From the NCBI GenBank assembly GCA_002923215.1, contig BDTI01000150.1, positions 1 to 34,655 of the forward strand: a stretch of 34,655 nt of DNA. The letters run 5' to 3'. This document shows, in pieces, positions 3,494 to 34,655 of this stretch (the stretch's first letter is position 1; each line of letters begins with the position of its first letter). The notes beneath the pieces are model-generated. The model did not search any database and was not told where the DNA came from. It worked only from the letters and a program-made list of their open reading frames with translations. Origin of the DNA: an archaeon BMS3Abin16 (GTDB taxonomy: Archaea > Hydrothermarchaeota > Hydrothermarchaeia > Hydrothermarchaeales > SZUA-236). A program made the position numbers and the translations under genes.

Positions 3494-3525
3494 GGTTAAA
3501 TAGAGTTTATTGCACTATTATAAAC

Positions 3526-4719
3526 CTATTGTTTTTTGTATCTTTTTAATATGATCTTTTTAAGAATGGAATAATCTAGTGTCTTAAGATGATTCAACTC
3601 TTCAAGAGAAAAAAGGTCTGATACAATGCCGACCCTAATGAGATGATACGTTTTTTCCGTTTTTTTCCCGGTTTCATACAAAATTTTTGTCAGCACATCT
3701 GAATATTCAAAAAAGTTCTTACATTTTTCTTCGATGGTTTTTACATATGATTCTAGTCCCTTTCCGTGTACAGCATATTCAGCAGCAGATTGCCCTGCGA
3801 TATCACCACATAATATGCCGGGTAGGAAGCCCTCCACAAAAGGCTTGAGGTTCTGATTTGCCGCATCACCAACAAACAAAATATTTCCGTAATGCCATTT
3901 TTCAGTTTGAGGGAGAAAAGGAACCAATCCTTCTTTTTCCTTAATGATTAAATTCTCGCCACCCAAAAGATTGTTTACTTCAGGCAGTTCTAAGAAGTTG
4001 TCGTAAAATTCCTTAATAGAATCTTTTTTAAATAGAGCCGCCACCCCCACATTGGCCCTATTATTGGAAAGGGGAAAGATATACCCATATCCCCCTGGAG
4101 CAAAATCTCCGAAAAACATATAATCCAGATTAGAGTTTACTTTCACGCCACTTAATTCAAAACTATAAACATACCCTGTTTTTTCTAAATCAACTTCAAA
4201 GCCCAGCAGGTTCAAGACAGTTGAGTCTACACCATCTGCAGCAATCACGACTTTTGGCTTAATTTCCGTTTCTACATTATTTGTTTTTACTCTAACAGTA
4301 GATACATGGTACCCTTCACGAGTTTCAACGTCGATAAGCTCGGTGTCCAAGAGTAATTTTGCACCAGCTTTTACTGCGTTATCCGCTAGCCATTTGTCAA
4401 ACTTTTCCCTATTTATTGCATAACCGGACCACATCCCCCCTTTTCTTTCGATTGTTATGTCATCTACATTGAAAGAAATTCCATCTATCTTCCAGAGCAG
4501 CTGGTCTTTTGGCATTTTAAATGGCAGATGAGATATGAGATAGCTTCCAATACCCTCAGCACACTGCACCGGCACACCAACTTCCTTCTTTTTGTCTATG
4601 AAAATAGTCTTAGCCCCACCTTTGGCTGCAGCCCACGCCGCACTTGATCCAGCCGGCCCTGCACCAACCACCAGAACATCACATTCAATAGTCAATATAC
4701 GTTGTCTCCCTGAAGTCAA
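3526..4719 (-). CDS. Geranylgeranyl reductase family FAD-dependent oxidoreductase (paralog 1)
   Basis: Rossmann motif CDVLVVGAGPAGSSAA, then VPVQCAEGIG, VVIAADGVDS and LFVGDAANQ, as in archaeal digeranylgeranylglycerophospholipid reductase-like proteins. The TTG start overlaps the upstream stop (TTGA). An alternative TTG lies at 4695. Confidence 0.8.
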   Translation of the reverse strand: MTSGRQRILTIECDVLVVGAGPAGSSAAWAAAKGGAKTIFIDKKKEVGVPVQCAEGIGSYLISHLPFKMPKDQLLWKIDGISFNVDDITIERKGGMWSGYAINREKFDKWLADNAVKAGAKLLLDTELIDVETREGYHVSTVRVKTNNVETEIKPKVVIAADGVDSTVLNLLGFEVDLEKTGYVYSFELSGVKVNSNLDYMFFGDFAPGGYGYIFPLSNNRANVGVAALFKKDSIKEFYDNFLELPEVNNLLGGENLIIKEKEGLVPFLPQTEKWHYGNILFVGDAANQNLKPFVEGFLPGILCGDIAGQSAAEYAVHGKGLESYVKTIEEKCKNFFEYSDVLTKILYETGKKTEKTYHLIRVGIVSDLFSLEELNHLKTLDYSILKKIILKRYKKQ

Positions 4720-5846
4720 TTGACACTCTTTCCACTTAACTGCCTTAAAATGGCATCTATGTCAGTCTTTTTATCTAGCTCAGTTATAATTTCTGCAATC
4801 AAGTCTAGATCGTCATTGGTTAGTGATTCAAAGACTCTCTCATATAGATAGGAGAGTCGTTTGTCAAATTTTTCCCGGACCATAGAATCATAGTTCTGCA
4901 ACAGTCCGAGGTCTTCTTCAAGTGCCCGCTTAATAGTTTGTCCTGCATAATAGCTGCTAACTATTGCCGAGGTCATCCCATATCCAAAAAATGGATCCAA
5001 TAATCCTGCCGCCTCGCCGATAAAAACCAGGTTTTCACTAACAAGAGAGTCAAGATCAAAGATTTGACCTTCGCCAAAGAATGGCGTCGAATCTTTCCCA
5101 ATCAAATCGGATACACTGGGATGTTTTAACATAAATGCTTGAAATGCGTCTTTAGCTTTTTGCTTCATATGCTCGGAGTCAATCACTATGCACGCCGTGG
5201 AAACCCCACTCTCCCCTGTTATAAGATAAAAATAACCTCCCGGTAACAGCTCAGCGTCAAAGTAAACGTTAGATGAATTAGGGTTTGTGTAGTTTTCTCC
5301 CGTAAGCCCATATCCGATCTTCTTTCGGCCTTCTGATTTTTTAGTGACAAATCGGTGAAACATTGAATTACCGCCGTCAGCAGCGATAACAACACAGGGT
5401 TTTATTCGTTTAACGTCTCCATTTATCTTGACAGTTAGAGAATCAATCTTTCCATCTTTCTCTAAAACATCCTCGATTTTTGAATTACAATAGACCCGGC
5501 AACCTGCCTCTTCCGCCTTTGCAACCGTATCCACTTCGAAGGAATCGCTATCAGGACCTCGCTTGAAGAAATATTCAGGTGAAGAGGATTCTAATTGAAA
5601 GTAGTTTCCAGAGGGCGGGTGCCACCGTGACGTGTAAACACGGTTTTCTACCTTTAGATTCAGCTCTTCAATTATTTTCGAAAGTTCGCCATCTGCGGAT
5701 GCATCTAGTTTAGTTTTTGTATGGCTTCCAACAGCCGTGTTTTTTTCCAGAAGTATTGTGTTCAACCCGTTTTTTGCACATATCAAAGAAACAACAGATC
5801 CTGCCGGCCCTGCCCCCACTACTAAAACATCGCATTCAATTGTCAA
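4716..5846 (-). CDS. Geranylgeranyl reductase family FAD-dependent oxidoreductase (paralog 2, divergent)
   Basis: CDVLVVGAGPAGSV, VVIAADGGNS and VFIGEAAGLLDPFFGYG motifs. TTG start at 5846, preceded by GAGGTG (5855-5860) with 8-nt spacing. Confidence 0.75.
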   Translation of the reverse strand: MTIECDVLVVGAGPAGSVVSLICAKNGLNTILLEKNTAVGSHTKTKLDASADGELSKIIEELNLKVENRVYTSRWHPPSGNYFQLESSSPEYFFKRGPDSDSFEVDTVAKAEEAGCRVYCNSKIEDVLEKDGKIDSLTVKINGDVKRIKPCVVIAADGGNSMFHRFVTKKSEGRKKIGYGLTGENYTNPNSSNVYFDAELLPGGYFYLITGESGVSTACIVIDSEHMKQKAKDAFQAFMLKHPSVSDLIGKDSTPFFGEGQIFDLDSLVSENLVFIGEAAGLLDPFFGYGMTSAIVSSYYAGQTIKRALEEDLGLLQNYDSMVREKFDKRLSYLYERVFESLTNDDLDLIAEIITELDKKTDIDAILRQLSGKSVN

Positions 5847-5883
5847 GCACTTAGCACCTCAGGACTGATTTTAATCATAAAAC

Positions 5884-5893
5884 AATATATAAA
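5884..5893 (-). promoter_or_regulatory. Candidate archaeal TATA box for the tandem reductase operon
   Basis: The minus strand reads AAAGGA-TTTATATATT, a purine-rich BRE-like stretch followed by a TATA box, 37 nt upstream of the TTG start. This would give a short 5' UTR that carries the GAGGTG RBS. Confidence 0.35.
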
Positions 5894-6104
5894 TCCTTTG
5901 CCGAAAATGGAAAAATAAACGTCGAAAACAGTGTTTTTAGGAAAAAATTTTCACCACACCCCCCCATTCTTACTAAAAAGCCAGGAAATCAAGCTACAAA
6001 CCACTGCCAAAACTTTTGAAAGTTCCTTGGAGAACACTCCGCCAGACTATAATATAAACCCAGAATGTGTAAGTTGATCTACAAACAAAAAGGCAAAAAT
6101 AAAA

Positions 6105-6638
6105 TCACTTCTCAGCAATCCTTTGCAGAACGTCTTTGATGCCCTTCAAGAGCACTGTATTCTCGCTTAGAATGCCGGTGTGTTCGTTCAGAATGCCGGA
6201 CTGTTCGCTTAGAATGCCCGTGTGTTCGTTCAGAATCCCTGTGTGCTCGCTTAGAATGCCGGACTGTTCATTTAGAATCCCCGTATGATCCCTCATTATA
6301 CCGATACCCACATCAAGCTTCTCGCCAATCTCCTCCCACTCGGTAGAAGCTATCTTAACAAACCTAGGCGGCAGGTCAATGTCCCTGGAGACCTCCCGCT
6401 TAACAACACCTTCGATCTCAGCCCCAATAGCCTCTGTCTTCTTCTCAACATCCTCAAAAAAAGAGTCTATTACATCATTCGCCCCTTCGATGATGACCTT
6501 CACAGTGCCGTCTATGTCATTAAATACAAAGCCCCTGAGCCGCTGAAAATTGGCAAGTTCTGTGATAAGCTCTCTGAGCCCAATGTCCTGAACTTTCCCC
6601 TGGATTACAACGTTATAGCGGTTAACCTGAACCTGCAT
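6105..6638 (-). CDS. Acylphosphatase-like domain protein with a C-terminal heptad-repeat array
   Basis: The N-terminal ~90 aa fits the acylphosphatase/HypF-N pattern (IQGKVQDIGLR...LRGFVFNDIDGTVKVIIEG). The C-terminus carries six tandem 7-aa units [HQ][TS]GIL[NS]E plus one degenerate unit. Confidence 0.6.
   Translation of the reverse strand: MQVQVNRYNVVIQGKVQDIGLRELITELANFQRLRGFVFNDIDGTVKVIIEGANDVIDSFFEDVEKKTEAIGAEIEGVVKREVSRDIDLPPRFVKIASTEWEEIGEKLDVGIGIMRDHTGILNEQSGILSEHTGILNEHTGILSEQSGILNEHTGILSENTVLLKGIKDVLQRIAEK
6162..6287 (-). repeat. Six tandem 21-bp units, in-frame coding repeat
   Basis: Units begin at 6162, 6183, 6204, 6225, 6246 and 6267 (e.g. ctcgcttagaatgccggtgtg / ttcgttcagaatgccggactg). 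Each encodes one xxGILxE heptad of the 6105-6638 ORF. Confidence 0.9.
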
Positions 6639-6663
6639 AGAGTATAAAAAAGCAGTTCAAGAG

Positions 6664-6672
6664 TATTTATAT
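6664..6672 (-). promoter_or_regulatory. Candidate TATA box, leaderless-type spacing
   Basis: The minus strand reads ATATAAATA, with 25 nt between the box and the ATG at 6638. Confidence 0.35.
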
Positions 6673-6937
6673 CTTTCTTTATGTTCACCTTCCCCTGATA
6701 GGCTCTAGAAAGTTGAATTTTCGGCTATATTCAAGTATAAATTTCAGAGCATACATGACAAAAACGATTACAGCGCACACCGCCATGTTGCAGACGGCAG
6801 TTTTTGTCTCCGTCTAAACCTTTTACTGTATTAACCCATCCAATAAACGCAGGGTTATGTTTGTTTAAAACAGTTTGTTTCCGCGATGGAAAAATTTAAA
6901 AATAGAAAATAACATTAGTTCTATTAGGTGTATATGC

Positions 6938-7240
6938 ATGACAGATAAAAAAGATGAGAAAAAAGTGTATGAACAGTTGAAGATGCTCTGGGAGCAAAAC
7001 ATCAAGCCCCACATACTCTTCATAGTCCTTAGGACACATGAGGACGGGGAGTTCTACAGGGGAAAATGGTTTGTGGACCAAGGTTATAATCTTACCGAAG
7101 TCTACGACGCCATCGAGATCCTGGTCGCTAAAGGCGACCTAACACGGCAGGGGAAAAAAACAAGGATAACACCAAAGGGACGTAGGACACTCAAGCATGT
7201 AGACGAGGCCATCGAAAGAACCTCAGCAATCATAGGCTAG
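6938..7240 (+). CDS. Small hypothetical protein, probable winged-helix DNA-binding fold
   Basis: ATG at 6938 is preceded by GGTG (6927-6930). The listed ORF start at 6875 has no RBS. The C-terminal half (LTEVYDAIEILVAKGDLTRQGKKTRITPKGRRTL) looks like a recognition helix plus wing. Confidence 0.45.
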   Translation: MTDKKDEKKVYEQLKMLWEQNIKPHILFIVLRTHEDGEFYRGKWFVDQGYNLTEVYDAIEILVAKGDLTRQGKKTRITPKGRRTLKHVDEAIERTSAIIG

Positions 7241-7416
7241 AGGCGCGGATGGAGGATCTGTTCTTTTGCCATAGACCAAGTGCACTGAGACATCTGGAAA
7301 GGATGACGCCTGCAGATTGATTTAAATATGTCTAAAAGGAGAATTATATAGTTTCAACTAGCCCTCATAGCTAAAAAGCAGCCATAGAGGGTTAGGAGAC
7401 GATAGTAGGTGAATGC

Positions 7417-9352
7417 ATGGTTGTGCGCTACATATTAGCTGTTTCTGTCCTGCTTCAATTTACTGCAGCTTTTTTAGCTTTGAAACTGATCCGAGTTACA
7501 GGGAGACGCGCGGCATGGATATTGATTGCAGCAGCCATTCTTCTCATGGCTGTCAGGCGCAGCATCACATTATACCGACTAGCCTCTGGACATGTGCTCC
7601 TCCAGCCCGACCCGACTGCGGAATTGGTCGCCCTGGTCATATCGGTGCTTATGGTGGCTGGGATAGCAAAGATTAGTTCGCTTTTTCTCTCCATCAAACA
7701 GTCGGAGGAGGCGCTGCGGGAGTCTGAAGAGAAATTTAGAGGTCTTGCTGAGAAGTCTCCCAACATGATCTTTATCAACATGAAAGGAAGGATCGTGTAT
7801 GCTAATGAGGCTTGCCAGGAGATACTTGGATACAGAAGAGAGGAGTTTTACTCTCCTGATTTTAATTTTCTCAGCTTGATCGCCCCGGAATGCGCGGATC
7901 TAGTTAAGGCAAATTTCGAAAGACATGCAAAGGGGAGGGAGGTGCCTCCAGTTGAATATACGCTTATCACCAAAGAGGGTAAAAGAATCGTGGGGCTGCA
8001 CACGACAAAACTGATACGATACGAAGGCGAAAGTGCTGTTCTCGGCATAATCGCTGACATCACCGAGCGCAAGCGGGCTGAAGAGGAACTGCGCAGAGTA
8101 AACCGGGGACTCAAGATGCTCAGTGCATTCAACCAGACATTGGTGCGCACCATGGACGAGCCCAGTTTACTGCGCAACACATGCCGCGTTATAGTTGAGG
8201 TCGGGGGATATCGATTTGCCTGGATCGGATTCGCCGAATCTGATGAAGAAAAGACTGTGCGGCCGGTGGCACAGGCAGGCTACGAGAAAGGCTATCTCGA
8301 TACAGTACACATTGTTTGGTCAGATACTGAACAAGGCCGCGGCCCCACAGGCACAGCTATCCGCACAGGTAAATCGATTGTTTGTAAAAAGATGCTAACT
8401 GATCCGCGGTATTCTCCATGGCGCTCTGAAGCGAGCGAGCGCGGATATGCATCGTCGATTGCCCTTCCTTTGATTGCTAGAGACCAAACCCTTGGAGCAT
8501 TAAACGTTTATGCAAGAGAGCCGGATGCCTTTGACTCAGAGGAGGTAAAGTTACTAGTGGAACTGGCAGACGATCTGGCCTATGGCATCATGGCACTTCG
8601 CACGCGCGCTGAGCATGAGCGCTCTGAAAAAGCATTGAAAACAGCCTGGCAAGAGCTGAAAAGCCTGGACGAGTTGAAAAGCAACATCATCACAAATGTG
8701 GGTCACGAGCTGCGCACTCCACTGACCATAGCCAACTCTGCCCTGGAGCTTGCAAGTGACGAAGAAGACCCAAAAGAAAAGAACATGCTTTTGAAGATGG
8801 CTGAAAATGCGCTTTCGCGACAGAACATTGTTGTGGAAAATCTCATAGAGGCTGCGAGCATGAAGCCTCATAAGATGAAGTTACCACCTGCTCCAGTGAA
8901 CATGGATCAAATCATAACCTTAGTATGTGATGAATTCATACGTACACTTAAAAAACATGATCTAACGATAGAGCTCAGAGTAGAGAAGGAGCTGCCCCTT
9001 GTTAAAGCGGACAACACAAAACTTAAACTCATCTTGCGAAACCTCCTGGAAAATGCGATAAAGTTCAATAAAAAAGGCGGGAAGATAGTCCTCAATGCAA
9101 GGAAAAAAGATGGCGTGGTAGAGGTCTGTGTGAGAGATACTGGCATAGGTATTCCGAAGGATGGATGAGCAAGAGAAGATCTTTGACCGCTTGTATCAAA
9201 TGGACAGCTCCACAAGCAGGGTCTACGGAGGCATCGGCATGGGGCTTGCAATAGCCAAAACGATAGTTGAAGGATTCGATGGAAAATTGACAGTGTCAAG
9301 TGAACCTGGGGAGGGGAGCAGTTTTTGCTTCACCCTGCCGATCTATGAATGA
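7417..9352 (+). pseudogene. Membrane-bound PAS-GAF sensor histidine kinase, frameshifted inside the HATPase_c domain
   Basis: N-terminal TM helices, then a PAS-like and a GAF-like region. HisKA H-box is NVGHELRTPL and the N-box is LRNLLENAIKF. The G1 box VRDTGIGIPKDG then hits a stop at 9166-9168. The rest of the domain (EQEKIFDRLYQ...GGIGMGLAIAK) continues in the +1 frame as ORF 9161-9352. The junction reads aaGGATGGATGag. Confidence 0.8.
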
Positions 9353-9368
9353 TGAGCAAGGGCTTATC

Positions 9369-9491
9369 CTATACTTGAAGGCCGATTAGATATAGGATAT
9401 AGATGATAATTCCACTTATGAGAATATTGTAGACAGCAGTTGCTTCAGCCTTTTTTCGTTTCCAACAAACCGCACCCACACCATTTATCAT
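9369..9491 (-). CDS. Small hydrophobic peptide ORF (40 aa), paralog A
   Basis: Not in the ORF track (<60 aa). Translation: MINGVGAVCWKRKKAEATAVYNILISGIIIYILYLIGLQV. TTTATAT (9515-9521, minus) lies 23 nt upstream of the ATG, a leaderless-type spacing. It is paralogous to 9577-9690. Confidence 0.4.
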   Translation of the reverse strand: MINGVGAVCWKRKKAEATAVYNILISGIIIYILYLIGLQV

Positions 9492-9576
9492 GCTAAATAA
9501 TATTATCTATATAGATATAAATAATTTTTCCAACTCCAAAAGTCCCCCATGCATTCCGAATGGCTGAAACCTGTAT

Positions 9577-9690
9577 TTATGCTCCGTTGTACATTAGCCA
9601 AAGGATTAGAAGGGCTGCGCCAAGATTTATGAGGATATTTTGGACTGCACTATCTTGAGCTTCCCCTCGCTTCCATAGATGATGACCCAT
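9577..9690 (-). CDS. Small hydrophobic peptide ORF (37 aa), paralog B
   Basis: Not in the ORF track. Translation: MGHHLWKRGEAQDSAVQNILINLGAALLILWLMYNGA. GGTG lies 7 nt upstream of the ATG. The ORF starts 27 nt after the stop of the reductase gene 9718-10971. Confidence 0.45.
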   Translation of the reverse strand: MGHHLWKRGEAQDSAVQNILINLGAALLILWLMYNGA

Positions 9691-9717
9691 ACTCACACAC
9701 CACAGGAGAATTGAGGA

Positions 9718-10971
9718 TTATAGTTTATAAATCTTATTGTTCACCGCTGCCTGGGCGTGAAGATAGATTATCGCCAGGCGTTCAGACGCGTTTGATAAAA
9801 ACTGTTTCAACCGACTCTTATTCCAGGATTCAAGCCGGGATGTGATGTCTTCCTCATCGCCCAGAGCCAGTTTCGACACCTCCCTCGGTGAGATCAGGTT
9901 TCCGCAGAGCCCTGACAGAAGAAGATAGCTTTTTCGGCCGCTGAGATCGCTGATGTCTTCAAGTAGGCTGATGAGCCTGTCAGACTCCCTGAGTATAAGC
10001 CCAAGCCTGCGATCCAGGTTTCGCTGATACCTGCTTAGAGACTCGCCATTTAGTAGGTGCCTTGCCGCAGTTTTCCCAGCCACATCACCGCAGATTATAG
10101 CAGGGAGAAAGCCCTCAACCAGGGGTTTGATATTTTGAGACGCCGCCTCACCTGCGAGGAGCACCGACCCATATTGCCTCCTCAGACTCAACGGCTCAAA
10201 GGACACGGTCCCGCTCTTCTCCAAGACCGGTCTGCCGTCTTTAAGCTGAGCCTTCACACGGGGGAGAGCGACAAAATCCTGAAAGCACTGCCTGAGGTCT
10301 GCATCAGATGCGATTGTACCAACGCCGATGTTCGCCCGATTATCTGAGAGCGGGAAGATGTGGGCGTAGCCGCCGGGCGCGAAATCACCGAAATATAGCT
10401 GATCCAACTCTGGAGACTCAAGGGTAACTCCTTCATATTCGTAGACAACGGCCTGCCCCATCCGGGCATCAGACACCCGCTCACCAAGCGTTTCGAGAAC
10501 ACGGGACCTTGCTCCGTCAGCTCCGATCATGACCTTAAAGTCAACCTCAATTATTTCATCTTTCTTTCTGATCTGCGCCCGTCCGCCGCTCCATGATTTG
10601 TCCAAGGTTGCATCAATAAACTCGGCTGACATAATTAGGTCAGCACCTGAATCGACAGCCCTCTGAGAAAGCCATTTGTCAAAGGCAGATCGGTCTATCG
10701 CATAGCTTGACCAGGGCCCTCCCCTCCGAACATATGAGACTTCGTCCACAATGAATTCAAGACCCTCAATACTATGCTTAAGCAGATTTTTCGGTGTTTT
10801 AAAGGGCAGATAAGGTAGCAGATAGCTACCTATTGCGCCTGAACATGTGATTGGAACACCGATCTCAGGCTTTCGCTCAACAACGATTGTCTTAAGCCCT
10901 GCAGCCCCGCATGCCGCAGCCGCGCTGCAACCGGCCGGCCCTGCTCCAACAACCAAAACATCACATTTCAT
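9718..10971 (-). CDS. Geranylgeranyl reductase family FAD-dependent oxidoreductase (paralog 3)
   Basis: MKCDVLVVGAGPAGCSAA, VPITCSGAIGSY, MIGADGARS and LLAGEAASQ motifs. It aligns along its whole length with paralog 1 (3526-4719). Confidence 0.8.
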   Translation of the reverse strand: MKCDVLVVGAGPAGCSAAAACGAAGLKTIVVERKPEIGVPITCSGAIGSYLLPYLPFKTPKNLLKHSIEGLEFIVDEVSYVRRGGPWSSYAIDRSAFDKWLSQRAVDSGADLIMSAEFIDATLDKSWSGGRAQIRKKDEIIEVDFKVMIGADGARSRVLETLGERVSDARMGQAVVYEYEGVTLESPELDQLYFGDFAPGGYAHIFPLSDNRANIGVGTIASDADLRQCFQDFVALPRVKAQLKDGRPVLEKSGTVSFEPLSLRRQYGSVLLAGEAASQNIKPLVEGFLPAIICGDVAGKTAARHLLNGESLSRYQRNLDRRLGLILRESDRLISLLEDISDLSGRKSYLLLSGLCGNLISPREVSKLALGDEEDITSRLESWNKSRLKQFLSNASERLAIIYLHAQAAVNNKIYKL

Positions 10972-10995
10972 TTCTCTTTGGCATGGACTAAAGGC

Positions 10996-11009
10996 TTATA
11001 AAAATATAT
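10996..11009 (-). promoter_or_regulatory. Candidate TATA box, leaderless-type spacing
   Basis: The minus strand reads ATATATTTTTATAA, with 24 nt between the box and the ATG at 10971. Confidence 0.35.
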
Positions 11010-11113
11010 CCATCGCCCAACAGTTTTTCAACTCCTCCTCTGGCTCTGGTTAAAATATCTGGCCACCCCTTTTACAGATGATGCCTGCGGCCTGCCCCAT
11101 TTTTGGTTAGTGG

Positions 11114-11254
11114 CTAGGGATTGGGGCAGGCTCTGAGGTCTTCAATAGTCCTGTAAGCGTAGGAGTAGATGCAGAGATCCTCGCCGCAACTGCACTCGTG
11201 GAAGCTGCAGGTCATGCAACCCCAGAGATTTGCCTTGAGATTGAGTTTTTTCAT
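11114..11254 (-). CDS. Small cysteine-rich ORF (46 aa)
   Basis: Not in the ORF track. Translation: MKKLNLKANLWGCMTCSFHECSCGEDLCIYSYAYRTIEDLRACPNP (6 Cys). GAGGT lies 8 nt upstream of the ATG. The ORF sits 117 nt downstream of the minD-like gene on the same strand. Confidence 0.35.
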   Translation of the reverse strand: MKKLNLKANLWGCMTCSFHECSCGEDLCIYSYAYRTIEDLRACPNP

Positions 11255-11371
11255 CTTCACAGACCTCAAGAGAGTTTAACTGTCATTGATTAAACCCCAC
11301 ATCTTATTTGAAGAATAGTTCAATTTTATTTAAAAAAACAGTCAACCCCCATCCTGAATAATGAAAAATAT

Positions 11372-12142
11372 CTATCTTCCCAAGATGCTTCCGAATCTGG
11401 TTTTTATCCTGCTAAAGACACCTTCTTCTTCAAACTCCATCTCCCGGCCTATGAGAGATGATGAAAGACGCAGAACTTCCCGTGAAACCCTGGCCGTGTG
11501 GAAGCGTGTGACAAAAGGCACCTCATAGGCAAGGGCGTCTTTAACCTCCTCGGAATCAGGCACAATAGAGATCACATGGGCGTCCAGCGTGCTTTCAATC
11601 TCAGCAACCGAAAGCTCTCTGGGCTTGTCCTCCACACGGTTCACAATCACGCCGATAATCTTTGCGCCCATGCGCTCTGCAAGTATCTTCATCTTCAGTG
11701 CGTCTGAAACCGATGAAACCGTGGGAAGCGTGACAATCAAAACCTCCTGCCCCTCGTCCATAACCATCGCTGCGTCCCGGCCTGCAGGCGCGTCGATAAC
11801 AAGGATCTCAATTTCACTTGGCACTTCTTTAAGCGCGGTTTTAAGCATGTCCATGTTCCGCTCGCTGAACCCGTCCAAAGTTATGCCTGCAGGAATTACT
11901 TTTACACCCTCAGGCCCCTCGTAGAGCACGTCTTCAATGCTGAGCCTGCCGCTGAGAGTGTCGATAAGCGCCACAGGCGGGTTACGAATCCCCATGATGA
12001 TTTCAAGATTTGCCATCACAACGTCGGCGTCAAGTACAGCCACGTTTTTCCCAAGCCTCGCAAGGGAGACGGCGATGTTTGCAGCAAGCGTTGTCTTACC
12101 AACTCCACCCTTGCCGGATGCCACTACAATTGTGCGTGTCAC
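11372..12142 (-). CDS. minD: MinD/ParA-family P-loop ATPase (archaeal MinD-like)
   Basis: Deviant Walker A SGKGGVGKTT, then LDADVVMANLE and a Walker B-like VLVIDAPAG. 4-nt overlap with the upstream pgk gene. Confidence 0.8.
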   Translation of the reverse strand: MTRTIVVASGKGGVGKTTLAANIAVSLARLGKNVAVLDADVVMANLEIIMGIRNPPVALIDTLSGRLSIEDVLYEGPEGVKVIPAGITLDGFSERNMDMLKTALKEVPSEIEILVIDAPAGRDAAMVMDEGQEVLIVTLPTVSSVSDALKMKILAERMGAKIIGVIVNRVEDKPRELSVAEIESTLDAHVISIVPDSEEVKDALAYEVPFVTRFHTARVSREVLRLSSSLIGREMEFEEEGVFSRIKTRFGSILGR

Positions 12143-13380
12143 TGTTCGCCTCCACCCGACTTTTTCATGACCTCAATTCCCGGCAGCGGCTGATCAGAGA
12201 GAAATGAAACAGTGGCCCCGCCGCCTGAACCAATATATGATATCTTGTCTCTGAGCCCTGCCCGTTTTGCAACGGTTGTGAGATGGCCGCCTCCGATAAC
12301 TGAAAGCGACTTTGAATCCGCTATTGACTGTAAAATCGACTCTGTCCCCAAGCCGAAGCCATTTATCTCAAAGACGCCTGCAGGCCCCTTTGCGATGACC
12401 ACGCTTGCATCTTTTATCGCCTTGGAAAATACCTTCATCGTCTCAGCCCCTATGTCCAGCGCCTTTTTATCTGGAAACCCATCAACAGATGCTTCAGACC
12501 TGCCGCCATTGTCTTCAAAGGCAAGGTCAACTGGCAGCTCGATCTGTCCTTTAAACCGCTTCAAAAGCTCCCCGGCCTCAGACACAAGCTCATTGTATCC
12601 CAGGTCTTTTACCATGTCTCTGTTCGCGCTGCCAATGTCTTTTCCAGAGGCCATGAGAAATATTAGCGCAGCAACGCCTGAGAGCAACACCTTGTCTGCG
12701 ACACCCTTTAAAAGCACGTTTTTCGTAATCAAAAAGGAGTCATCTGCCTTGGCTCCGCCTAGGGCAAAGACCTTTGGCGTCTCTTTTGACTTGAGCACCT
12801 TTGTAAGCGCGGTTATCTCTCGCTCCATGCTTGGCCCGATGCAGCAGGGGAGAACCATTGGAAATCCTACAACCGATGGCTGCGCCCTATGTGAAACTGC
12901 AAAGGCGTCGTTAACATAGAAGTCCACATAGCTTGAAAGCCTTCGCACAAGATGGGTCTTGGCCTGCTCGATGGGCGGCCTCCCACATATCCTTTTTGAG
13001 ACTTCTTCAGAGCAGAACCTCATGTTTTCAAGCACTAAAACCTCACCCGGGCTAAGGCTGTCTATCCCTTTTTTCGCGCATGATCCGAAGACATCATCAA
13101 TATAGCTTACCCTGCCCTTAACAAGGCGGTTTAAGACCTCGCTATGCCGCCGCAGGGTTGTGAAATCCCCTTTGCCCGGCCTGGACTGATGGGCAATAAG
13201 AATTACCTTTGAGTCTTTAAGCCGCTCCAGAGTCTGCACATAGCCCTTGATACGGCTGGTGTCCAGTATCTCGCCGCTCATGGGGTCAAGAGGCGAGTTT
13301 ATGTCCGCTCGCAAAAGAACCTTCTTACCTCTGAGATCAAAGTCGTCGAGAGTATGTAGCCCCACTGCCATGCCCCCCAT
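12139..13380 (-). CDS. pgk: Phosphoglycerate kinase (archaeal type)
   Basis: DLRGKKVLLRADINSP, LIAHQSRPGK, NDAFAVSHR, GGAKADD and YIGSGGGA motifs. The alternative start at 13371 (MAVGLH) sits 23 nt from an AAATATTATAA box. Confidence 0.9.
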   Translation of the reverse strand: MGGMAVGLHTLDDFDLRGKKVLLRADINSPLDPMSGEILDTSRIKGYVQTLERLKDSKVILIAHQSRPGKGDFTTLRRHSEVLNRLVKGRVSYIDDVFGSCAKKGIDSLSPGEVLVLENMRFCSEEVSKRICGRPPIEQAKTHLVRRLSSYVDFYVNDAFAVSHRAQPSVVGFPMVLPCCIGPSMEREITALTKVLKSKETPKVFALGGAKADDSFLITKNVLLKGVADKVLLSGVAALIFLMASGKDIGSANRDMVKDLGYNELVSEAGELLKRFKGQIELPVDLAFEDNGGRSEASVDGFPDKKALDIGAETMKVFSKAIKDASVVIAKGPAGVFEINGFGLGTESILQSIADSKSLSVIGGGHLTTVAKRAGLRDKISYIGSGGGATVSFLSDQPLPGIEVMKKSGGGEQ

Positions 13381-16999: not shown

Positions 17000-17056
17000 A
17001 TCAATAATTATTTAACTTATCAGATTTAAGGTTAGATGTAAGAACTGTGCGGGAGA

Positions 17057-29246: not shown

Positions 29247-29849
29247 ATGGGCAATATGGAAGAGTTTCTTAGAGCAATGCAACGCAATACAGATGCTAAA
29301 AAAGACGAATATGGTTCCGAAGCTCTGAACAAGTTTGATAAGAGTCAGTTTGAAAGGAACCTAAATGAACTTCTCAAAGAGATAAACCAGATTCAGGACG
29401 AGGATGCAATGTCTCACCTTCTTGAGAGGCTGTCTTTTCGCCTAAATAAATTTAAGATGTTTGATAAGAGTCTTCAGATAATAAATAAAATTTCAGAAAA
29501 GGAAAGAAAGGAATGGGCATATGTGGAAATTGCAACATCTTTTGCCAGCATCGGCAGATATAACGAAGCTGTTAAATTAATGAAAAAGGCTGGTTCCTCT
29601 CATCACCAATGGCCCCGGATTATCAAATACGCTATTGAATTGCAGGATTTCGATGCTGCTGAAGAAATAGCAAAGAACATAGATTCCCTAGACGAGCAAA
29701 GCAGACAGCTAAAGACAATTCGAGCACATAAAAACCGATACTGTCCGCTTATTAAAGACGATGATGAACTCTTCGTTGTTGTTTCCAATGAACTAGCTAA
29801 AAATCTCAGGCTAAGAAACGGCGATAAAGCAACCATCAGGATATTGTAA
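29247..29849 (+). CDS. Hypothetical protein: helical (TPR-like) repeats plus a C-terminal AbrB/SpoVT-like beta-barrel motif
   Basis: 200-aa ORF in AT-rich DNA, with GGAGG 7 nt upstream of the ATG. The C-terminus DELFVVVSNELAKNLRLRNGDKATIRIL resembles the swapped-hairpin (AbrB/VAT-N type) pattern ..IP.e....l.l..GD.v.i. Confidence 0.35.
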   Translation: MGNMEEFLRAMQRNTDAKKDEYGSEALNKFDKSQFERNLNELLKEINQIQDEDAMSHLLERLSFRLNKFKMFDKSLQIINKISEKERKEWAYVEIATSFASIGRYNEAVKLMKKAGSSHHQWPRIIKYAIELQDFDAAEEIAKNIDSLDEQSRQLKTIRAHKNRYCPLIKDDDELFVVVSNELAKNLRLRNGDKATIRIL

Positions 29850-29886: not shown

Positions 29887-30840
29887 TTGACAAAGACATT
29901 AGAAGAAATTCTCACGGGAGTAATATTGTGTGATGGACAGGGTTATAATAAGAAATGTATGTTCCTAGAAAGGGGGAAGGATGGGAAACCGAAAAAGGGT
30001 AAAGATGGAAAAACGAAACGAACCCTTGATCCATCTGAGTTAAAGAATAAACATGACGGAGAATATAAAGACGAAAAAGATAATTCGGTTGGACTTAAAG
30101 AGTCAGATGTTGAGGATAGGTATCATGTTTATTCTACTGGTAATATGAAACCAGATTTCATGTTTATTATGGAAACGCCGGGAAAAAAAGAGAGTTACAA
30201 GAAAAAGAACAACGAGAATGAATTTGATAAATATGTCAGCAATGGTAAACTGATAAATCATGACAATCTTGAGGGATATGCAAAATTAAGGCAGAAGAAT
30301 TTTCTCAAATGGATATTAAAGCCGTCCGATAAAGACAATATTAAAGACAATATAATTGGCATTGTCAACCAAGAATTACTTGATAATCAAATTACACTAA
30401 ACTTAAAGGATAGACAGCCAGAAAAGAAAACGTTTGAATTTTTTGACTATGTTCATGTGACAGACGTGCGAAAATGTGCAGACGGAAAAACGAGTATATG
30501 CTTCAAGAAGTTTTTGAAAAAAGAAATTGAAATTTTGAATCCAAAACTCATATTTTGCTTTGGTGGTGAGGCGTGGAATCAAATATTTAAGGGATATGAA
30601 TCAGTAATTAGAAACGAAAAATGTAATGACGAAAAAATTAAAGAAATTGAAAAAGGAGGCAAAATCACCAAAATTTCTGACGTTCACGGCTATCTTTTCA
30701 AATTTAAAATTAAAGATGATGCAGATTCGATTTATATCCTTCCTTGCATCCATTTTAGCGGCACTGCACGCAATTCAGCACCCAGAAACAGTTACATAGA
30801 TTATTTCAAAAAAGGGTTAACAGAATATAGGGGAAAATAG
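29887..30840 (+). CDS. Divergent uracil-DNA-glycosylase superfamily protein (UDG-like 1)
   Basis: TTG start with GGGAG 8 nt upstream. FMFIMETPGKKE aligns to family-4 motif A (hhhhGE[AG]PG..E, here with G->M). HVTDVRKC aligns to the T-N-x-x-K-C segment. LIFCFGGEAW follows, and LPCIHFSG aligns to motif B (HPS-like). There is a Lys-rich N-terminal insert. Confidence 0.5.
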   Translation: MTKTLEEILTGVILCDGQGYNKKCMFLERGKDGKPKKGKDGKTKRTLDPSELKNKHDGEYKDEKDNSVGLKESDVEDRYHVYSTGNMKPDFMFIMETPGKKESYKKKNNENEFDKYVSNGKLINHDNLEGYAKLRQKNFLKWILKPSDKDNIKDNIIGIVNQELLDNQITLNLKDRQPEKKTFEFFDYVHVTDVRKCADGKTSICFKKFLKKEIEILNPKLIFCFGGEAWNQIFKGYESVIRNEKCNDEKIKEIEKGGKITKISDVHGYLFKFKIKDDADSIYILPCIHFSGTARNSAPRNSYIDYFKKGLTEYRGK

Positions 30841-30846
30841 GAAAAA

Positions 30847-30869
30847 TGACCTCTCTAACCTTCTATGGC
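30847..30869 (+). repeat. Direct repeat copy A, a gene 5' fragment (MTSLTFYGGVGYFN*)
   Basis: ATGACCTCTCTAACCTTCTATGG is identical over 23/23 nt to 33794-33816. It starts 6 nt after the UDG-like 1 stop. As an ORF it terminates after 14 codons. Confidence 0.9.
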
Positions 30870-30933
30870 GGTGTCGGCTATTTCAATTAACTTTTTATAC
30901 GGCATTAACATCAACATATATGTAGGTGATAGC

Positions 30934-31128
30934 ATGTATGTTCGAACCACTATAAAGCTAAGGGAAGACATATATCAGCGCCTCAAAAAAGAGGTTGGAG
31001 CGCGGGGGATGTCTGAAAAAATAAATAAAATACTTGAAGAGACCCTTATCAAGAAGAAGAAAACCCTTTATGGGACCATGCCAAAAGTTGATACAGGCGA
31101 TTTGAGGGACCACGAAGACCGGATGTGA
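30934..31128 (+). CDS. vapB: Ribbon-helix-helix antitoxin (VapB-type)
   Basis: ATG 30934 has AGGTG 5 nt upstream. MYVRTTIKLREDIYQRLKKE is an RHH beta-strand plus helix. The stop is 1 nt before the vapC ATG. Confidence 0.7.
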   Translation: MYVRTTIKLREDIYQRLKKEVGARGMSEKINKILEETLIKKKKTLYGTMPKVDTGDLRDHEDRM

Positions 31129-31129
31129 A

Positions 31130-31516
31130 ATGATGTTTATCGACTCCTTCGCATGGATTGAATATTTTATGGGCACGGAGAGGGGGAGAAAAGTAAAAAA
31201 AATAATCGAAGGCAATGTAATCACATATACATCGCCAACAGTTATTGCAGAGATCTTCTCAAAGTCGGTTAGAACCGACGGCCAGGATAAAGCCAGGGAG
31301 AGAGTGGATTTCATCGTTGACCGATGCGTGCTCATCCAAACAGACGAAAACATTGCTGTTGAAGCTGGAAGATTACACGGGGAGATGAAGCCGAAGATCA
31401 AGGATTTCGGGCTGGCCGACGCCTTTATCCTCGCATCGGCACGGAGCAAAGGAGCCAAAGTGGTGACTGGAGACCCCCATTTCAAAGACCTAGATGATAC
31501 AGTGTTTTTAGATTGA
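31130..31516 (+). CDS. vapC: PIN-domain toxin (VapC)
   Basis: FIDS (first acidic residue), AEIF, LADAFILASA and VVTGDPHF give the four conserved PIN acidic positions in order. Confidence 0.8.
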   Translation: MMFIDSFAWIEYFMGTERGRKVKKIIEGNVITYTSPTVIAEIFSKSVRTDGQDKARERVDFIVDRCVLIQTDENIAVEAGRLHGEMKPKIKDFGLADAFILASARSKGAKVVTGDPHFKDLDDTVFLD

Positions 31517-31562: not shown

Positions 31563-32246
31563 TTAGAGACAATTCTCTTTCTTAACAATCTGCATAAGCT
31601 CGCCGAGGTCATCAATCTCGTAATCTGCCCCAGAATCTATGCCCCCCTTCTTAGCCCCATATCTTGCAAAGGCAGTCTTCATGCCAAGGCTTTTGGCTCC
31701 TTGGATGTCTCTCTCTGGCCAGTCCCCGACCATGAGAACCTCTGAGGGTGCAAACCCCAGCTCTTTCAGTGCCTTTTCGAAGGGAAGCCCCTCGGCTTTG
31801 GTCTTACCGGTGTCCTCAAAGGCCACTACAACATCAAAGATGTGATGAAGCTTAAGGGGGCACAATCTTATTCAGGCCTGCAGCCGCGGGGCATCACTGA
31901 CCACGCCCAGCTTGATCCCAATCTTGGACAGCTTGGTGAGTGTCGGAGTGACATGAGGAAAAGGCTCCAGGTAGGCCAGTTTGGTCTTCCTGTAGACAGC
32001 TATGGCATTGCCCAGGATCTTATAATCAATACACCCCAGGACTTCTTTGAGGAAGTCATCAAAGATGTGCTGGTATTCTATACCGCGTCTCTCATAGAGC
32101 TCGTAGAGCTTTCTGATGGCATCATCCCGCTCCATATCGAGGCCTGCATCTATCATGGCGTCCACAGCAGCCTCCACGCTCATCCGCTTCATTTTGCCGA
32201 AATCTATGAGGGTGTTATCTAGGTCGAAGAGCACCCCTTTTATCAT
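31563..32246 (-). pseudogene. HAD-superfamily hydrolase interrupted by an in-frame TGA
   Basis: Motif I FDLDNTL, motif II GVVSDA, then ...PRLQA-TGA-IRLCPLKLHHIFDVVV... in the same frame (stop at 31872-31874). Motifs III/IV KTKAEG and MVGDWPERDI follow. Start is taken as MIKGVLFDLD at 32246. Confidence 0.75.
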
Positions 32247-32333
32247 CAAGTAGAATAGTGTCATCAGAAGGTAAATAGTTTTTCGAACCCTGTCCTCACA
32301 AAAATAAAATACTAGGAACCTCAACGGGTCTTC

Positions 32334-32402: not shown

Positions 32403-33791
32403 ATGTTTAAGCATGAATGTGAGATGTATCCACTCGTGAAGGACTTTTTGATTAAGAAACAAGAATGTAATGAAGAAAAAACGGGGTATACCTCTGAAAA
32501 AAAATGTTTAACTGATGAGGGGAAAACCCTGTCTTTGGCGCTTTTCGGGAGAAGTATTGAACCGGATGTTTACGGTATCGATGACACTAAAGGTATAATC
32601 TATCTTGCAGAAGGTAAAATTACCCACGAAGGTAGATCTTTTGATGAGGCGATTGTTCAGGGTGTGACTTACCAAAGGTTCTCCCACTATGTTTATGTCT
32701 TCTTTCCAATAATAGAGGATGCGGATATTCTAAAACATCTAAAAGAGCTGTGTGAAGAATATGGCTTAGGACTTCTGTTAATAGATTACCAGCGACAGGT
32801 CGAGGAAATAGTTACTCCAAAACTTTCAAAATTTTACGGAGGGAATAACTGGTCTATTACTCGTGATAACATCAAAACAGCAGAAGAAAAAATAACAAGA
32901 TTATTATTGTTAGGTGGAGTGGGAAAAATAGGGCAGGTTCATTTGCCCATTTTAAGGGACATCTGCTATCTACTGGGCGAAAAAGTAAGTTGGAATAATG
33001 AAGAGACGTTTATTATTTTTTTAAGGAAGCATACGTTATTAGATAAATATCGGAGTCAAGGACTAAATGGGAAAGAAAGTAGTCTGAATTTACATGATGG
33101 GAGTGTTAAAAATCCATTGTTATTAAAGAAGATTAAATCGCGTAACAATTCTTCTAGAGGTGCTACTGTTGAAGAGGTATCGGACACCTTTAAAAAATTA
33201 ATCACGGAGACTCTTAACACGTTAGAATATCTTGGCTTGCTAAAAAGAGATAAAGAATCGATGAATCTAACTCCCCAAGGAATTAACTTCAGAAACGTTA
33301 TTAGAGGTGATAATAAGCAGAATCTATACAGAAAAGAAGTTGTCGACACAATTCAGAGAACATTTATTTCTATTCTGCTGGCCAAGGAAGAAGTTGAAGA
33401 AGAAATCCGGAAGATGTGTGAGATAATCAAAAGTGTAGAGCCACAACCGAGATTTAGATTTTGGTGCGATAAATGCGATTATAAAAAAGACTGGACAGTG
33501 AAAAAACTAGAAAAGGAAAAGTTATTAAATATTTACAAAAAATATGGAGAAATACATTGCCCGATATGCAATAATAAAAAGGTTCCTCAGCCGTATAACT
33601 TATTAATGGCGGCTAAGGATTTGGAAAACACTTATCGTTTGGAAGTTTTGCTGGAAGAAACAAAAATAATCGAAAAAGCACGGTCTTTTGACCAGCTTCC
33701 GCCTGAAATGAAGAGAAAATTTAGAATTAATGATCCAAAGCGAACCACTTACTGGTATCTTGGAAAAAACGCCCCTTATTTATCCGAGTAA
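32403..33791 (+). CDS. PD-(D/E)xK nuclease-like / winged-helix / zinc-ribbon protein
   Basis: GGAG lies 7 nt upstream of the ATG. The N-terminus has IEPDVYGIDDTKGIIYLAEGK (D...ExK spacing typical of restriction-endonuclease-fold proteins) followed by QGVTYQ. Mid-protein, LNTLEYLGLLKRDKESMNLTPQG looks wHTH-like. The C-terminus has CDKC-x26-CPIC. Confidence 0.5.
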   Translation: MFKHECEMYPLVKDFLIKKQECNEEKTGYTSEKKCLTDEGKTLSLALFGRSIEPDVYGIDDTKGIIYLAEGKITHEGRSFDEAIVQGVTYQRFSHYVYVFFPIIEDADILKHLKELCEEYGLGLLLIDYQRQVEEIVTPKLSKFYGGNNWSITRDNIKTAEEKITRLLLLGGVGKIGQVHLPILRDICYLLGEKVSWNNEETFIIFLRKHTLLDKYRSQGLNGKESSLNLHDGSVKNPLLLKKIKSRNNSSRGATVEEVSDTFKKLITETLNTLEYLGLLKRDKESMNLTPQGINFRNVIRGDNKQNLYRKEVVDTIQRTFISILLAKEEVEEEIRKMCEIIKSVEPQPRFRFWCDKCDYKKDWTVKKLEKEKLLNIYKKYGEIHCPICNNKKVPQPYNLLMAAKDLENTYRLEVLLEETKIIEKARSFDQLPPEMKRKFRINDPKRTTYWYLGKNAPYLSE

Positions 33792-33793
33792 TC

Positions 33794-33816
33794 ATGACCT
33801 CTCTAACCTTCTATGG
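33794..33816 (+). repeat. Direct repeat copy C, which forms the first 8 codons of UDG-like 2
   Basis: 23/23 nt identical to 30847-30869 and 2947 bp downstream of it. It starts 2 nt after the stop of ORF 32403-33791. Confidence 0.9.
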
Positions 33817-34655
33817 TGTTGACAAAATTAAAGCAGTTTACAGTTGCGTTAAGTGCGAAGAGTGTAAATTACGAGATAAGAATAGTAATGTAGATTTTGC
33901 ATTTTATAATAAAAACTGTGACCAGAAGCTAATGCTTGTCCTTCAAAACCCAGGAATTGAAAAAGGAACTAAAAAAGAGCTAAGGGCGTTAGAGCATGAT
34001 CTTATAGCTGCTGCTGATTTTCAAACGCTATTAGAGTTACATATGTATGGAATGGCTCGATGGCTTTTTATAAATAATAAAGAATTTTCCAGAGAATTTT
34101 TTAAGATATTAAAAAAACCCTTCACCGAAGAATATTTTTTTGGGAGCTATGGTTTATTAGAACTTAAGGATATAGTCAACGACCCTAGTAAAATTGATAA
34201 AATTAAAGGATTTATTAGCCAGCTCTTCGATGATTTTTATATAACTGATTTAGTAAAATGCAGAACCGAAACTCAGAGCTTAAAATGGAACAAAAAGTGC
34301 AATCATCTTAAAAATTGTTACGATCAGTTTTTAAAATATGAGTTAGAAGCTGTACAGCCAGATGTAATTTTTGTCTTCGGCACTAGGGCTTGGAAGCACT
34401 TCTTTTATGAAACGAAATCTAATAATCCTTTAATGATAATAAATCCGAGTCCAACCAAACCCGATAATATTGAAAAATATCGGAATGTGTCAAAAGCTCA
34501 TGGAATTTTATTTGAAAGTGGCCTTTTTGAAGAGAAAAAAATATGGATTATCCCATTAGGCCACTTCAGCCAAGCTATTTACAATTTTTACTTAAGGGAT
34601 AGTTATCACTGTTATCTAAAGAAGGCCGTGTCTAAACTAAAAAAAGTTGGAGTTG
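33794..34655 (+). CDS. Divergent uracil-DNA-glycosylase superfamily protein (UDG-like 2), 3' end outside the window
   Basis: My own translation is open for 287 codons to the window edge. The ORF is absent from the supplied track, presumably because it has no stop. N-terminal CVKCEECKL (family-4-like Cys cluster), LMLVLQNPGIEKG (N-P-G as in MUG/SMUG motif A), YITDLVKCR, VIFVFGTRAW and IPLGHFSQ (motif B-like). It is collinear with UDG-like 1. Confidence 0.55.
   Translation, partial: MTSLTFYGVDKIKAVYSCVKCEECKLRDKNSNVDFAFYNKNCDQKLMLVLQNPGIEKGTKKELRALEHDLIAAADFQTLLELHMYGMARWLFINNKEFSREFFKILKKPFTEEYFFGSYGLLELKDIVNDPSKIDKIKGFISQLFDDFYITDLVKCRTETQSLKWNKKCNHLKNCYDQFLKYELEAVQPDVIFVFGTRAWKHFFYETKSNNPLMIINPSPTKPDNIEKYRNVSKAHGILFESGLFEEKKIWIIPLGHFSQAIYNFYLRDSYHCYLKKAVSKLKKVGV

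Follow-up and report, generated by a model that had tools for sequence, protein, structure and literature searches.

Near the 3′ end of a 34,655-nucleotide (nt) stretch of DNA, here called the window, two genes of the uncultured archaeon BMS3Abin16 lie 2 nt apart. ORF1 encodes a PD-(D/E)xK nuclease-like protein and UDG2 a protein of the uracil-DNA glycosylase (UDG) superfamily. Do they form a dedicated defence module, in which a glycosylase recognises an unusual or modified base in invading DNA and the neighbouring nuclease cleaves, as a preliminary description of the window had proposed? Comparison with related loci indicated otherwise. The adjacency was made by rearrangement. We read ORF1 as an orphaned mobile-element gene here, not a dedicated glycosylase partner. 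For the locus as a whole, we favour with a probability of roughly 45% a reading in which the UDG proteins are glycosylases for a non-uracil base, similar to the Brig proteins of bacteria, encoded in a variable islet and locally coupled to a beta-CASP nuclease. The beta-CASP gene, the UDG2 paralog UDG1, the repeat at the boundary and the mosaic, hypervariable nature of the islet had all escaped the preliminary description. The features that carry this argument are as follows.

32403–33791, plus strand: ORF1, 462 amino acids (aa), ATG to TAA; Hjc-like PD-(D/E)xK domain, probable winged helix and zinc ribbon
33794–34655, plus strand: UDG2 (P0005), 289 aa in full, last 8 nt outside the window
33794–33816, plus strand: right copy of a 23-nt perfect direct repeat (ATGACCTCTCTAACCTTCTATGG), giving the UDG2 start codon and first 8 codons (MTSLTFYG)
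30846–30890, plus strand: 15-codon remnant of a beta-CASP gene (MTSLTFYGGVGYFN and a stop codon), with the left copy of the repeat at 30846–30868
29887–30840, plus strand: UDG1 (P0007), 317 aa, a paralog of UDG2
10870–12678 of assembly L001, just outside the window: beta-CASP gene, RNase J-like, 602 aa, its ATG overlapping the UDG2 stop codon by 1 nt

The boundary between ORF1 and UDG2

The UDG2 ATG follows the ORF1 TAA after 2 nt (TC) and its frame leaves the window, as had been described; 287 codons lie inside, and the full-length open reading frame showed that the window misses 2 codons and the stop. The start of this gene is the right copy of the 23-nt repeat, a sequence that occurs exactly twice in the window (0 expected by chance). 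The left copy begins 5 nt past the UDG1 stop codon, where it opens the beta-CASP remnant, which is also present in strain L011. In the related genome L010, an intact beta-CASP gene overlaps the UDG1 stop codon, and the sequence equivalent to the repeat is where that gene genuinely begins (MTSLTFYSGVGEIGGNKILLE). The first 8 codons of UDG2 are homologous to the N-terminus of that beta-CASP protein (MTSLTFYSGVGEIGGN).

Because the right copy of the repeat is the UDG2 start, the first 8 codons of this gene, possibly 12, are borrowed from a beta-CASP gene. P0006, a homolog of UDG2, does not have the beta-CASP-derived N-terminus, and no alternative start codon of UDG2 would retain Cys21 and Cys24. 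The two copies of the repeat bound a segment of 2948 nt that holds vapBC, a HAD gene and ORF1. The 2-nt spacing of ORF1 and UDG2 coincides with the edge of the repeat, and their juxtaposition is therefore explained by rearrangement. The origin of the repeat in the 5′ end of a beta-CASP gene makes this boundary a recombination joint.

Homologs of ORF1 were found in three distinct contexts (L003–L006 with L092; L007; L008); the families of both genes are tiny, and most related contigs are 1–2.5 kb long. An Orc1/Cdc6-like ATPase gene lies downstream of the ORF1 homolog in L003–L006 and L092. This is the arrangement of P0004 (46% identity to ORF1; four contigs), which lies in a low-GC island beside a tRNA-Gly gene. 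A convergent small gene stands downstream in L008 and after P0003, and a small winged helix-turn-helix (wHTH) gene precedes P0002. A metagenome scan with 12 ORF1-family sequences returned one locus, L092, in which a small HTH gene, the ORF1 homolog and Orc1/Cdc6 form a block 2 kb from a tyrosine integrase gene, with a second Orc1/Cdc6 gene further on. The usual home of the ORF1 family is thus in integrative elements, near Orc1/Cdc6 and integrase genes.

A hidden Markov model (HMM) of the UDG subfamily found no member in the ORF1-homolog loci examined, and the list of open reading frames of L092 held no UDG-like gene. From the other side, the UDG2-type gene of L009 is followed by a gene for a signal-peptide protein and preceded by one whose product has a C-terminus unlike that of ORF1; this locus has no ORF1 homolog and no nuclease gene adjoining its UDG2-type gene. 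L010 and L011 carry UDG1-type genes and no ORF1. No other ORF1 locus had a UDG gene, then, and none of the other UDG loci (0/3) had ORF1. The idea of a tightly coupled module found no support in this comparison: the two genes are paired in none of the other loci, and here they meet at a recombination joint. A tight gene pair can arise by rearrangement, in which one gene takes over the start and initial codons of another; this is a caution for guilt-by-association calls that rest on one genome.

Some further features of the ORF1-homolog loci were observed. The integrative elements in L092 (1–10755) and L003 (8100–17300) share the small HTH gene, the ORF1 homolog, Orc1/Cdc6 and an 80-aa gene. 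The L092 element has in addition a tyrosine integrase with a zinc ribbon, two RNase H-like/PolB-exo-like fragments, a metallophosphatase and the second Orc1/Cdc6. Att-type repeats were looked for at the L003 island beside tRNA-Gly, and none were found. In L008, the gene convergent with the ORF1 homolog (1560–2021, minus strand; 153 aa) encodes a PD-(D/E)xK-like motif, DDRGIDLVV...IQVKS, with marginal PADLOC matches.

ORF1 and the UDG proteins

The description that suits ORF1 best is that of a predicted Hjc-like PD-(D/E)xK nuclease to which a probable wHTH and a zinc ribbon are added. The Hjc-like domain is N-terminal (about aa 1–145; nt 32403–32837), and the zinc ribbon is C-terminal (aa 355–389; nt 33465–33569), with a conserved tail, YWxLGxNAP. 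The restriction-endonuclease-fold signature and the CxxC...CxxC zinc ribbon noticed in the preliminary description consist of residues conserved among homologs. E5, P54-D55, E70-G-K72, Q86, C355/C358 and C386/C389 are invariant in 4 close homologs. Among 44 distant relatives, D55, E70, K72 and Q86 vary little or not at all, as does E5 in alignments of 25–44 relatives. The order of predicted secondary structure fits an alpha-beta-beta-beta-alpha-beta core in a low-confidence AlphaFold2 (AF2) model built from the alignment with 4 homologs (pLDDT 45).

An exhaustive profile search with ORF1 returned 82 representative clusters, most of them sharing just the N-terminal 150 aa. The sole recurrent Pfam match of this domain was Hjc, in 4 of 25 members and under the cut-off (best E 0.0015), and the sole plausible match in the Protein Data Bank (PDB) was 2eo0, weakly aligned over PD..ExK..Q (E 0.25). 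The profile of 44 relatives matched nothing in PDB and no Pfam family. The whole protein had no match in Pfam, NCBIfam, PADLOC families or PDB sequences, PHROGs added nothing useful, and no relatives were found in IMG/VR contigs. The wHTH that had also been proposed, in the centre of the protein (about aa 255–305), received weak support. Winged-helix-type Pfam matches at aa 250–315 are sub-threshold, the low-confidence model places a helix, a beta-hairpin and a helix at aa 256–301, and Foldseek returned MarR/MukE/E2F-type winged helices with poor scores, its other matches being meaningless.

ORF1 and UDG1 share a 31-nt imperfect repeat (81%; 32451–32481 in ORF1, 30607–30637 in UDG1), and BLASTP aligned aa 97–180 of ORF1 with aa 182–267 of UDG1 (27% over 92 aa, E 6e-4). 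This weak similarity is probably compositional, both genes being AT-rich and their products rich in Lys, Glu and Asn.

UDG2 is a putative Fe-S protein of the UDG superfamily, derived from family 4, with non-canonical motifs and belonging to a very rare subfamily. The superfamily assignment, made earlier from the motifs, was upheld by Pfam: UDG2 scored 43.8 bits (E 3.4e-11) and UDG1 31.8 bits against PF03167 (cut-off 24.3). With an AF2 model of UDG2, of low confidence and from few sequences (pLDDT 54, pTM 0.58), the top Foldseek matches were all UDG-superfamily structures (E 4e-3), the best of them Sulfolobus tokodaii family-4 4zbx (prob 1.0, TMt 0.58).

In the HMMER alignment with the Thermus thermophilus family-4 enzyme 1ui0, the putative Fe-S ligands of UDG2, Cys21, 24, 156 and 175, pair with cysteines of that enzyme (the CxxC, the Cys of VKC and the fourth Cys). 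The same alignment sets VGEGPG against VLQNPG and ITN80IVKC against ITD152LVKC, and UDG2 has insertions of about 62 and about 27 aa between the conserved blocks. The altered motifs QNPG and HFS of the preliminary description were read correctly: motif A is VLQNPG (nt 33944–33955) and motif B GHFS (HFS at 34562–34570; His257, 34562–34564). Asp152 (nt 34247–34249) stands where family 4 has the uracil-reading Asn.

These features are shared across the subfamily. T151, D152, K155, C156, C175, H257, F258 and S259 are invariant in all members (5/5), and C21 and C24 are present in every member whose N-terminus is present. Motif A differs from GE[AG]PG throughout: LQNPG in UDG2, MQNPV in P0006 and METPG in the UDG1 type. 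The PF stacking motif is not recognisable. UDG1 and UDG2 are 27% identical (E 8e-16) and have the same insertions and the TD..KC and HFS motifs in common. Against the NCBIfam family-4 models they score 32–33 bits, with cut-offs of 125 and 250.

Relatives are scarce. Searched with UDG2, a set of 5.8 billion proteins yielded one relative; a 3-member profile against the same set gave only P0005–P0009 and one marginal fragment. No relatives were found in IMG/VR viral contigs, and tblastn against sequenced phages and plasmids gave one marginal phage match to UDG2 (35% of the query, 29% identity, E 2e-4). PADLOC, PHROGs and NCBIfam offered nothing useful for UDG1 or UDG2.

Since the Fe-S cysteines, an Asn or Glu in motif A and the motif-B His are kept, UDG1 and UDG2 are probably active glycosylases. 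In S. tokodaii UDG, the residue that reads the Watson-Crick face of uracil is N82, and its place is taken by Glu in Brig1 (PMC11078745); in a family-1 UDG, changing Asn to Asp makes cytosine excision possible (PMC3989344). From the invariant Asp in place of this Asn, the lack of a PF stacking motif and the inserted helices of about 60 aa, we infer that the target is not uracil and would most simply be a cytosine-type or modified base. Recognition of an unusual base, as first proposed, is thereby made arguable from the Asn-to-Asp change; cleavage by a paired ORF1 found no support.

The islet and its beta-CASP gene

The 3′ end of the window is best read as a horizontally acquired, AT-rich, strain-variable chromosomal islet, not a provirus. 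The locus lies on a 99.8-kb contig. ORF1, UDG2 and the beta-CASP gene make up a low-GC block (32–40% versus 49–52% in the flanks) bordered by a HAD and a CBS gene, both of host GC; the islet is 15 points under the host. A second AT-rich block, of a TPR-like gene and UDG1, lies about 3 kb upstream, after prs, and is separated from the first by vapBC and the HAD gene, which have host-like GC. The remainder of the window consists of ordinary archaeal chromosomal genes (PGK, UDP-glucose dehydrogenase, geranylgeranyl reductases, Lon and others). Integrase, capsid, Orc1/Cdc6 and tRNA genes were absent from the window and from up to 10 kb downstream. Base composition, strain comparison and gene content thus mark the region as AT-rich, strain-variable and not a provirus.

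The UDG1 locus is a mosaic. Between the window and L011, from a sister sample, prs and the intergenic region are 96–100% identical in nucleotides, the 5′ part of the TPR gene 66–78% and the body of UDG1 41–76%, while the last 60 nt of UDG1, the remnant and the start of vapB are again 97–99% identical. In L010, amino acid identity to the window is 90% for prs, 51% for UDG1 and 39% for the beta-CASP protein, and UDG1 is also AT-rich there (30–34% versus 50% GC). The TPR-like gene is kept with UDG1 in L011 (69% amino acid identity) and is absent in L010; strains differ in its 5′ half, and the 3′ half is conserved. This pattern is one of allelic replacement at a variable locus. Genes of defence or of other conflicts typically show such replacement, which is no proof of such a role.

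At this locus each UDG gene lies directly upstream of a beta-CASP gene or its remnant, with stop and start overlapping or nearly so; the final base of the UDG2 stop codon is the first base of the beta-CASP gene that follows. The recurring nuclease neighbour of these UDG genes at the locus is therefore beta-CASP and not ORF1. The protein matches Lactamase_B_2 and RMMBL over the Pfam cut-offs and has an SHAHFDH motif. Its nearest relatives are EF2904 (2az4) and RNase J (RNase J model, 54 bits; cut-off 400). The two UDG-coupled beta-CASP genes belong to different subfamilies: that of L010 groups with forms of about 550 aa from metagenome-assembled genomes (MAGs) of Thermoplasmata and Methanomicrobia, and that of the window with forms of about 600 aa from Bathyarchaeota and L012. 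That the UDG paralogs are coupled to different subfamilies hints at a functional link, which we regard as possible.

The closest beta-CASP homolog (59%) is in L012, between DrmMI-like, PLD+SNF2 and OLD/GajA-like genes. This locus, in a Thermoplasmatales MAG (179–12914), is DISARM-like. A type IIG/DrmMI-like methyltransferase gene, a 281-aa gene and a PLD+SNF2 helicase gene precede beta-CASP, and an OLD/GajA-like ATPase-TOPRIM gene and a 329-aa gene with no known function follow it. We considered beta-CASP as a generally defence-linked gene and rejected this: just the L012 homolog is clearly in a defence cluster, and the Bathyarchaeota homologs adjoin ABC transporter genes. The family is widespread (more than 563 matches in species-representative genomes), mostly without defence neighbours. 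No relatives were found in IMG/VR, and PHROG gave a generic metallo-beta-lactamase (MBL) match only.

The other genes between and beside the UDG genes are these.

29247–29849, plus strand: TPR-like protein, 200 aa, upstream of UDG1
30934–31516, plus strand: vapBC, host-like GC; VapB, a ribbon-helix-helix antitoxin, and VapC, a PIN toxin (31130–31516)
31563–32264, minus strand: HAD-family hydrolase, host-like GC, directly upstream of ORF1 and divergent from it

A C-terminal segment of the TPR-like protein (CPLIKDDDELFVVVSNELAKNLRLRNGDKATIRIL) resembles AbrB/antidote-type DNA-binding domains (weak NCBIfam match). The vapB open reading frame as called (30865–31128) has its initial ATG within the 23-nt repeat and extends across the beta-CASP remnant. 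Because the Pfam antitoxin match begins at residue 29, translation probably initiates at the ATG at 30934. In the window, a TGA interrupts the frame of the HAD gene (31872–31874, minus strand) where assemblies L001 and L002 have TGG (Trp), which could be explained by strain microdiversity with a pseudogenised allele or by a consensus error; over 10.9 kb the window departs from L001 and L002 at 32 and 61 positions. A HAD hydrolase gene often adjoins the beta-CASP genes of about 550 aa in Thermoplasmata-type MAGs (L025–L031, L057, L013). An older neighbourhood may be traced in the HAD gene on the opposite strand next to the ORF1-UDG2-beta-CASP block.

Two other patches of low GC (about 33–35%) were seen: one at 3001–4000 of the window, at the junction of genes for a 977-aa KaiC-like ATPase and a geranylgeranyl-reductase-like protein, and one at 17000–18000 of L001, downstream of the islet, with a 207-aa hypothetical gene. 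An Rfam scan of the window gave no matches. A scan of the window for sigma-70 promoters and terminators, a method unsuited to archaea, did no better than on shuffled sequences.

Function and known systems

If the UDG proteins are Brig-like glycosylases, they would excise a non-uracil (cytosine-type or modified) base from invading DNA, as Brig1–3 do. The resulting abasic sites would block replication, or they might be processed by host AP endonucleases and possibly also by the coupled beta-CASP nuclease. The substrate, the defence role and the cooperation of UDG and beta-CASP are all parts of this scheme that we infer. In its fullest form the locus would be a new archaeal anti-virus system: an Asp-pocket Fe-S glycosylase excising a modified cytosine-type base of viruses, a coupled beta-CASP protein degrading the abasic DNA, and alleles swapped at a hot spot at the 5′ end of the nuclease gene. 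We think this complete version unlikely. If it were true, archaea would gain their first described glycosylase-based defence, and glycosylase defences as a whole their first dedicated nuclease partner.

Several observations weigh against a Brig-like role. The Asn-to-Asp argument is borrowed from family 1 and from the equivalence of positions in family 4, and the structure models of UDG2 and ORF1 are of low confidence (pLDDT 54 and 45). The preliminary description had looked to enrichment near known defence genes: VapBC is nearby and is the only adjacent known defence gene, and PADLOC gave no match for ORF1, UDG1, UDG2 or beta-CASP. Among 80 beta-CASP loci from other genomes, none (0/80) had such a UDG gene within 8 kb. 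The UDG2-type gene of L009 has no beta-CASP neighbour, and the adjacencies of UDG and beta-CASP are not independent, because all are at one chromosomal locus in one narrow lineage.

In three related genomes UDG1 stands after prs, so that a resident, lineage-specific repair gene also fits. On that account UDG1 and UDG2 would serve lineage-specific base-excision repair of uracil or another lesion, the beta-CASP protein would be an RNase J-type ribonuclease, and the gene order would be incidental. The kept Fe-S cysteines and motif-B His and the kinship with family 4 suit such enzymes, as do the wide spread of the beta-CASP family, mostly away from defence genes, and its best named relatives, RNase J. 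We find this explanation doubtful, however, as UDG1 is 51% identical where prs is 90–100% identical and its mosaic boundaries are sharp, GC is 15 points under that of the host, and the UDG family is nearly absent among 5.8 billion proteins. The change of the uracil-reading Asn to Asp in all members and NCBIfam scores far under the family-4 cut-offs also speak against it. The low-GC genes (ORF1, UDG2, beta-CASP and perhaps TPR and UDG1) might instead be the decayed cargo or replication module of a mobile element, with the UDG serving the maintenance of the element's genome. Low GC, direct repeats, a toxin-antitoxin pair and the occurrence of ORF1 homologs in integrative elements with integrase and Orc1/Cdc6 would agree with this. 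It is nonetheless quite unlikely, since the window and 10 kb downstream have no integrase, capsid, Orc1/Cdc6 or tRNA gene, ORF1, UDG and beta-CASP have no IMG/VR relatives and only one weak partial match (UDG2) among phages and plasmids, and the elements that bear ORF1 homologs have no UDG.

Highly improbable, in our judgement, is the original proposal of a dedicated two-gene defence in which modified invading DNA is marked by the glycosylase and cut by ORF1. In its favour, a mere 2 nt separate the genes, which share a strand and low GC; both have kept their catalytic signatures, and damaged DNA is in principle a possible substrate for a structure-specific nuclease of the Hjc-like kind. Against this stand an adjacency unique to this genome, homologs of ORF1 in L003–L008 and L092 with a small HTH gene and Orc1/Cdc6 as conserved neighbours and no UDG, the UDG2-type gene of L009 and UDG1-type genes of L010 and L011 without ORF1, and a boundary at the edge of the repeat that bounds the 2948-nt segment with vapBC and HAD.

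With the Brig-like reading preferred, the locus is a concrete archaeal candidate for glycosylase-based immunity, which to our knowledge has so far been described in bacteria (Brig1–3, Dag1/2). Among the papers available, none was found on a pairing of UDG with MBL/beta-CASP or on family-4 UDGs in archaeal defence. If these proteins do act on a modified base, archaeal viruses of hydrothermal sulfide deposits may carry modified bases.

The proteins of the locus can be compared with four groups of known systems. The third gene of the block shares the MBL HxHxDH motif and a C-terminal RMMBL motif with beta-CASP proteins of the RNase J family (EF2904, 2az4; RNase J; Cas14 of type VII CRISPR). It differs from that family in its 602 aa, about 150 of which form an insertion, and in scores far under every curated cut-off, and it represents an unnamed beta-CASP subfamily chiefly of Bathyarchaeota and Thermoplasmatales MAGs. 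ORF1 has the E..PD..ExK..Q signature of Hjc resolvases (PF01870; 2eo0) in a domain of about 140 aa. Unlike them it is 462 aa long, with an added wHTH, a zinc ribbon and a conserved C-terminal tail; its matches to them are sub-threshold, and the context of its family is that of integrative elements beside Orc1/Cdc6.

The best sequence and structure matches of UDG2 are family-4 enzymes (T. thermophilus UDGa 1ui0, S. tokodaii 4zbx, Thermotoga maritima 1l9g), with which it shares the four Fe-S cysteines, the VKC segment and the motif-B His. UDG2 and UDG1 depart from that family in having LQNPG or METPG for GE[AG]PG, ITD.VKC for ITN.VKC and HFS for HPS, and UDG2 also in its two insertions (about 62 and 27 aa) and its 33 bits against cut-offs of 125–250.

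Glycosylase-based antiviral defence is established, as had been stated at the outset: Brig1 (PMC11078745), Brig2 (bioRxiv 10.1101/2025.10.29.685425) and Brig3 (PMC13160076) are UDG-superfamily anti-phage DNA glycosylases. Homologs of Brig2 prefer AT-rich regions (bioRxiv 10.1101/2025.10.29.685425), and Brig3 works with an accessory protein from a small operon (PMC13160076). The likeness to UDG1 and UDG2 is drawn from these published descriptions, not from sequence comparison, PADLOC 2023 having no Brig model. A UDG fold akin to that of family 4, predicted for the proteins of this locus, is common to both sets, which are also divergent in sequence and patchily distributed. Likewise common to them is an AT-rich context, here probably acquired horizontally. 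The base-reading residue, Asn in uracil enzymes, is altered to Glu in Brig1 and to Asp here. UDG1 and UDG2 are set apart from the Brig proteins by their archaeal host, retained Fe-S cysteines, helical insertion of about 60 aa, presence as two paralogs in one locus and local coupling to beta-CASP genes.

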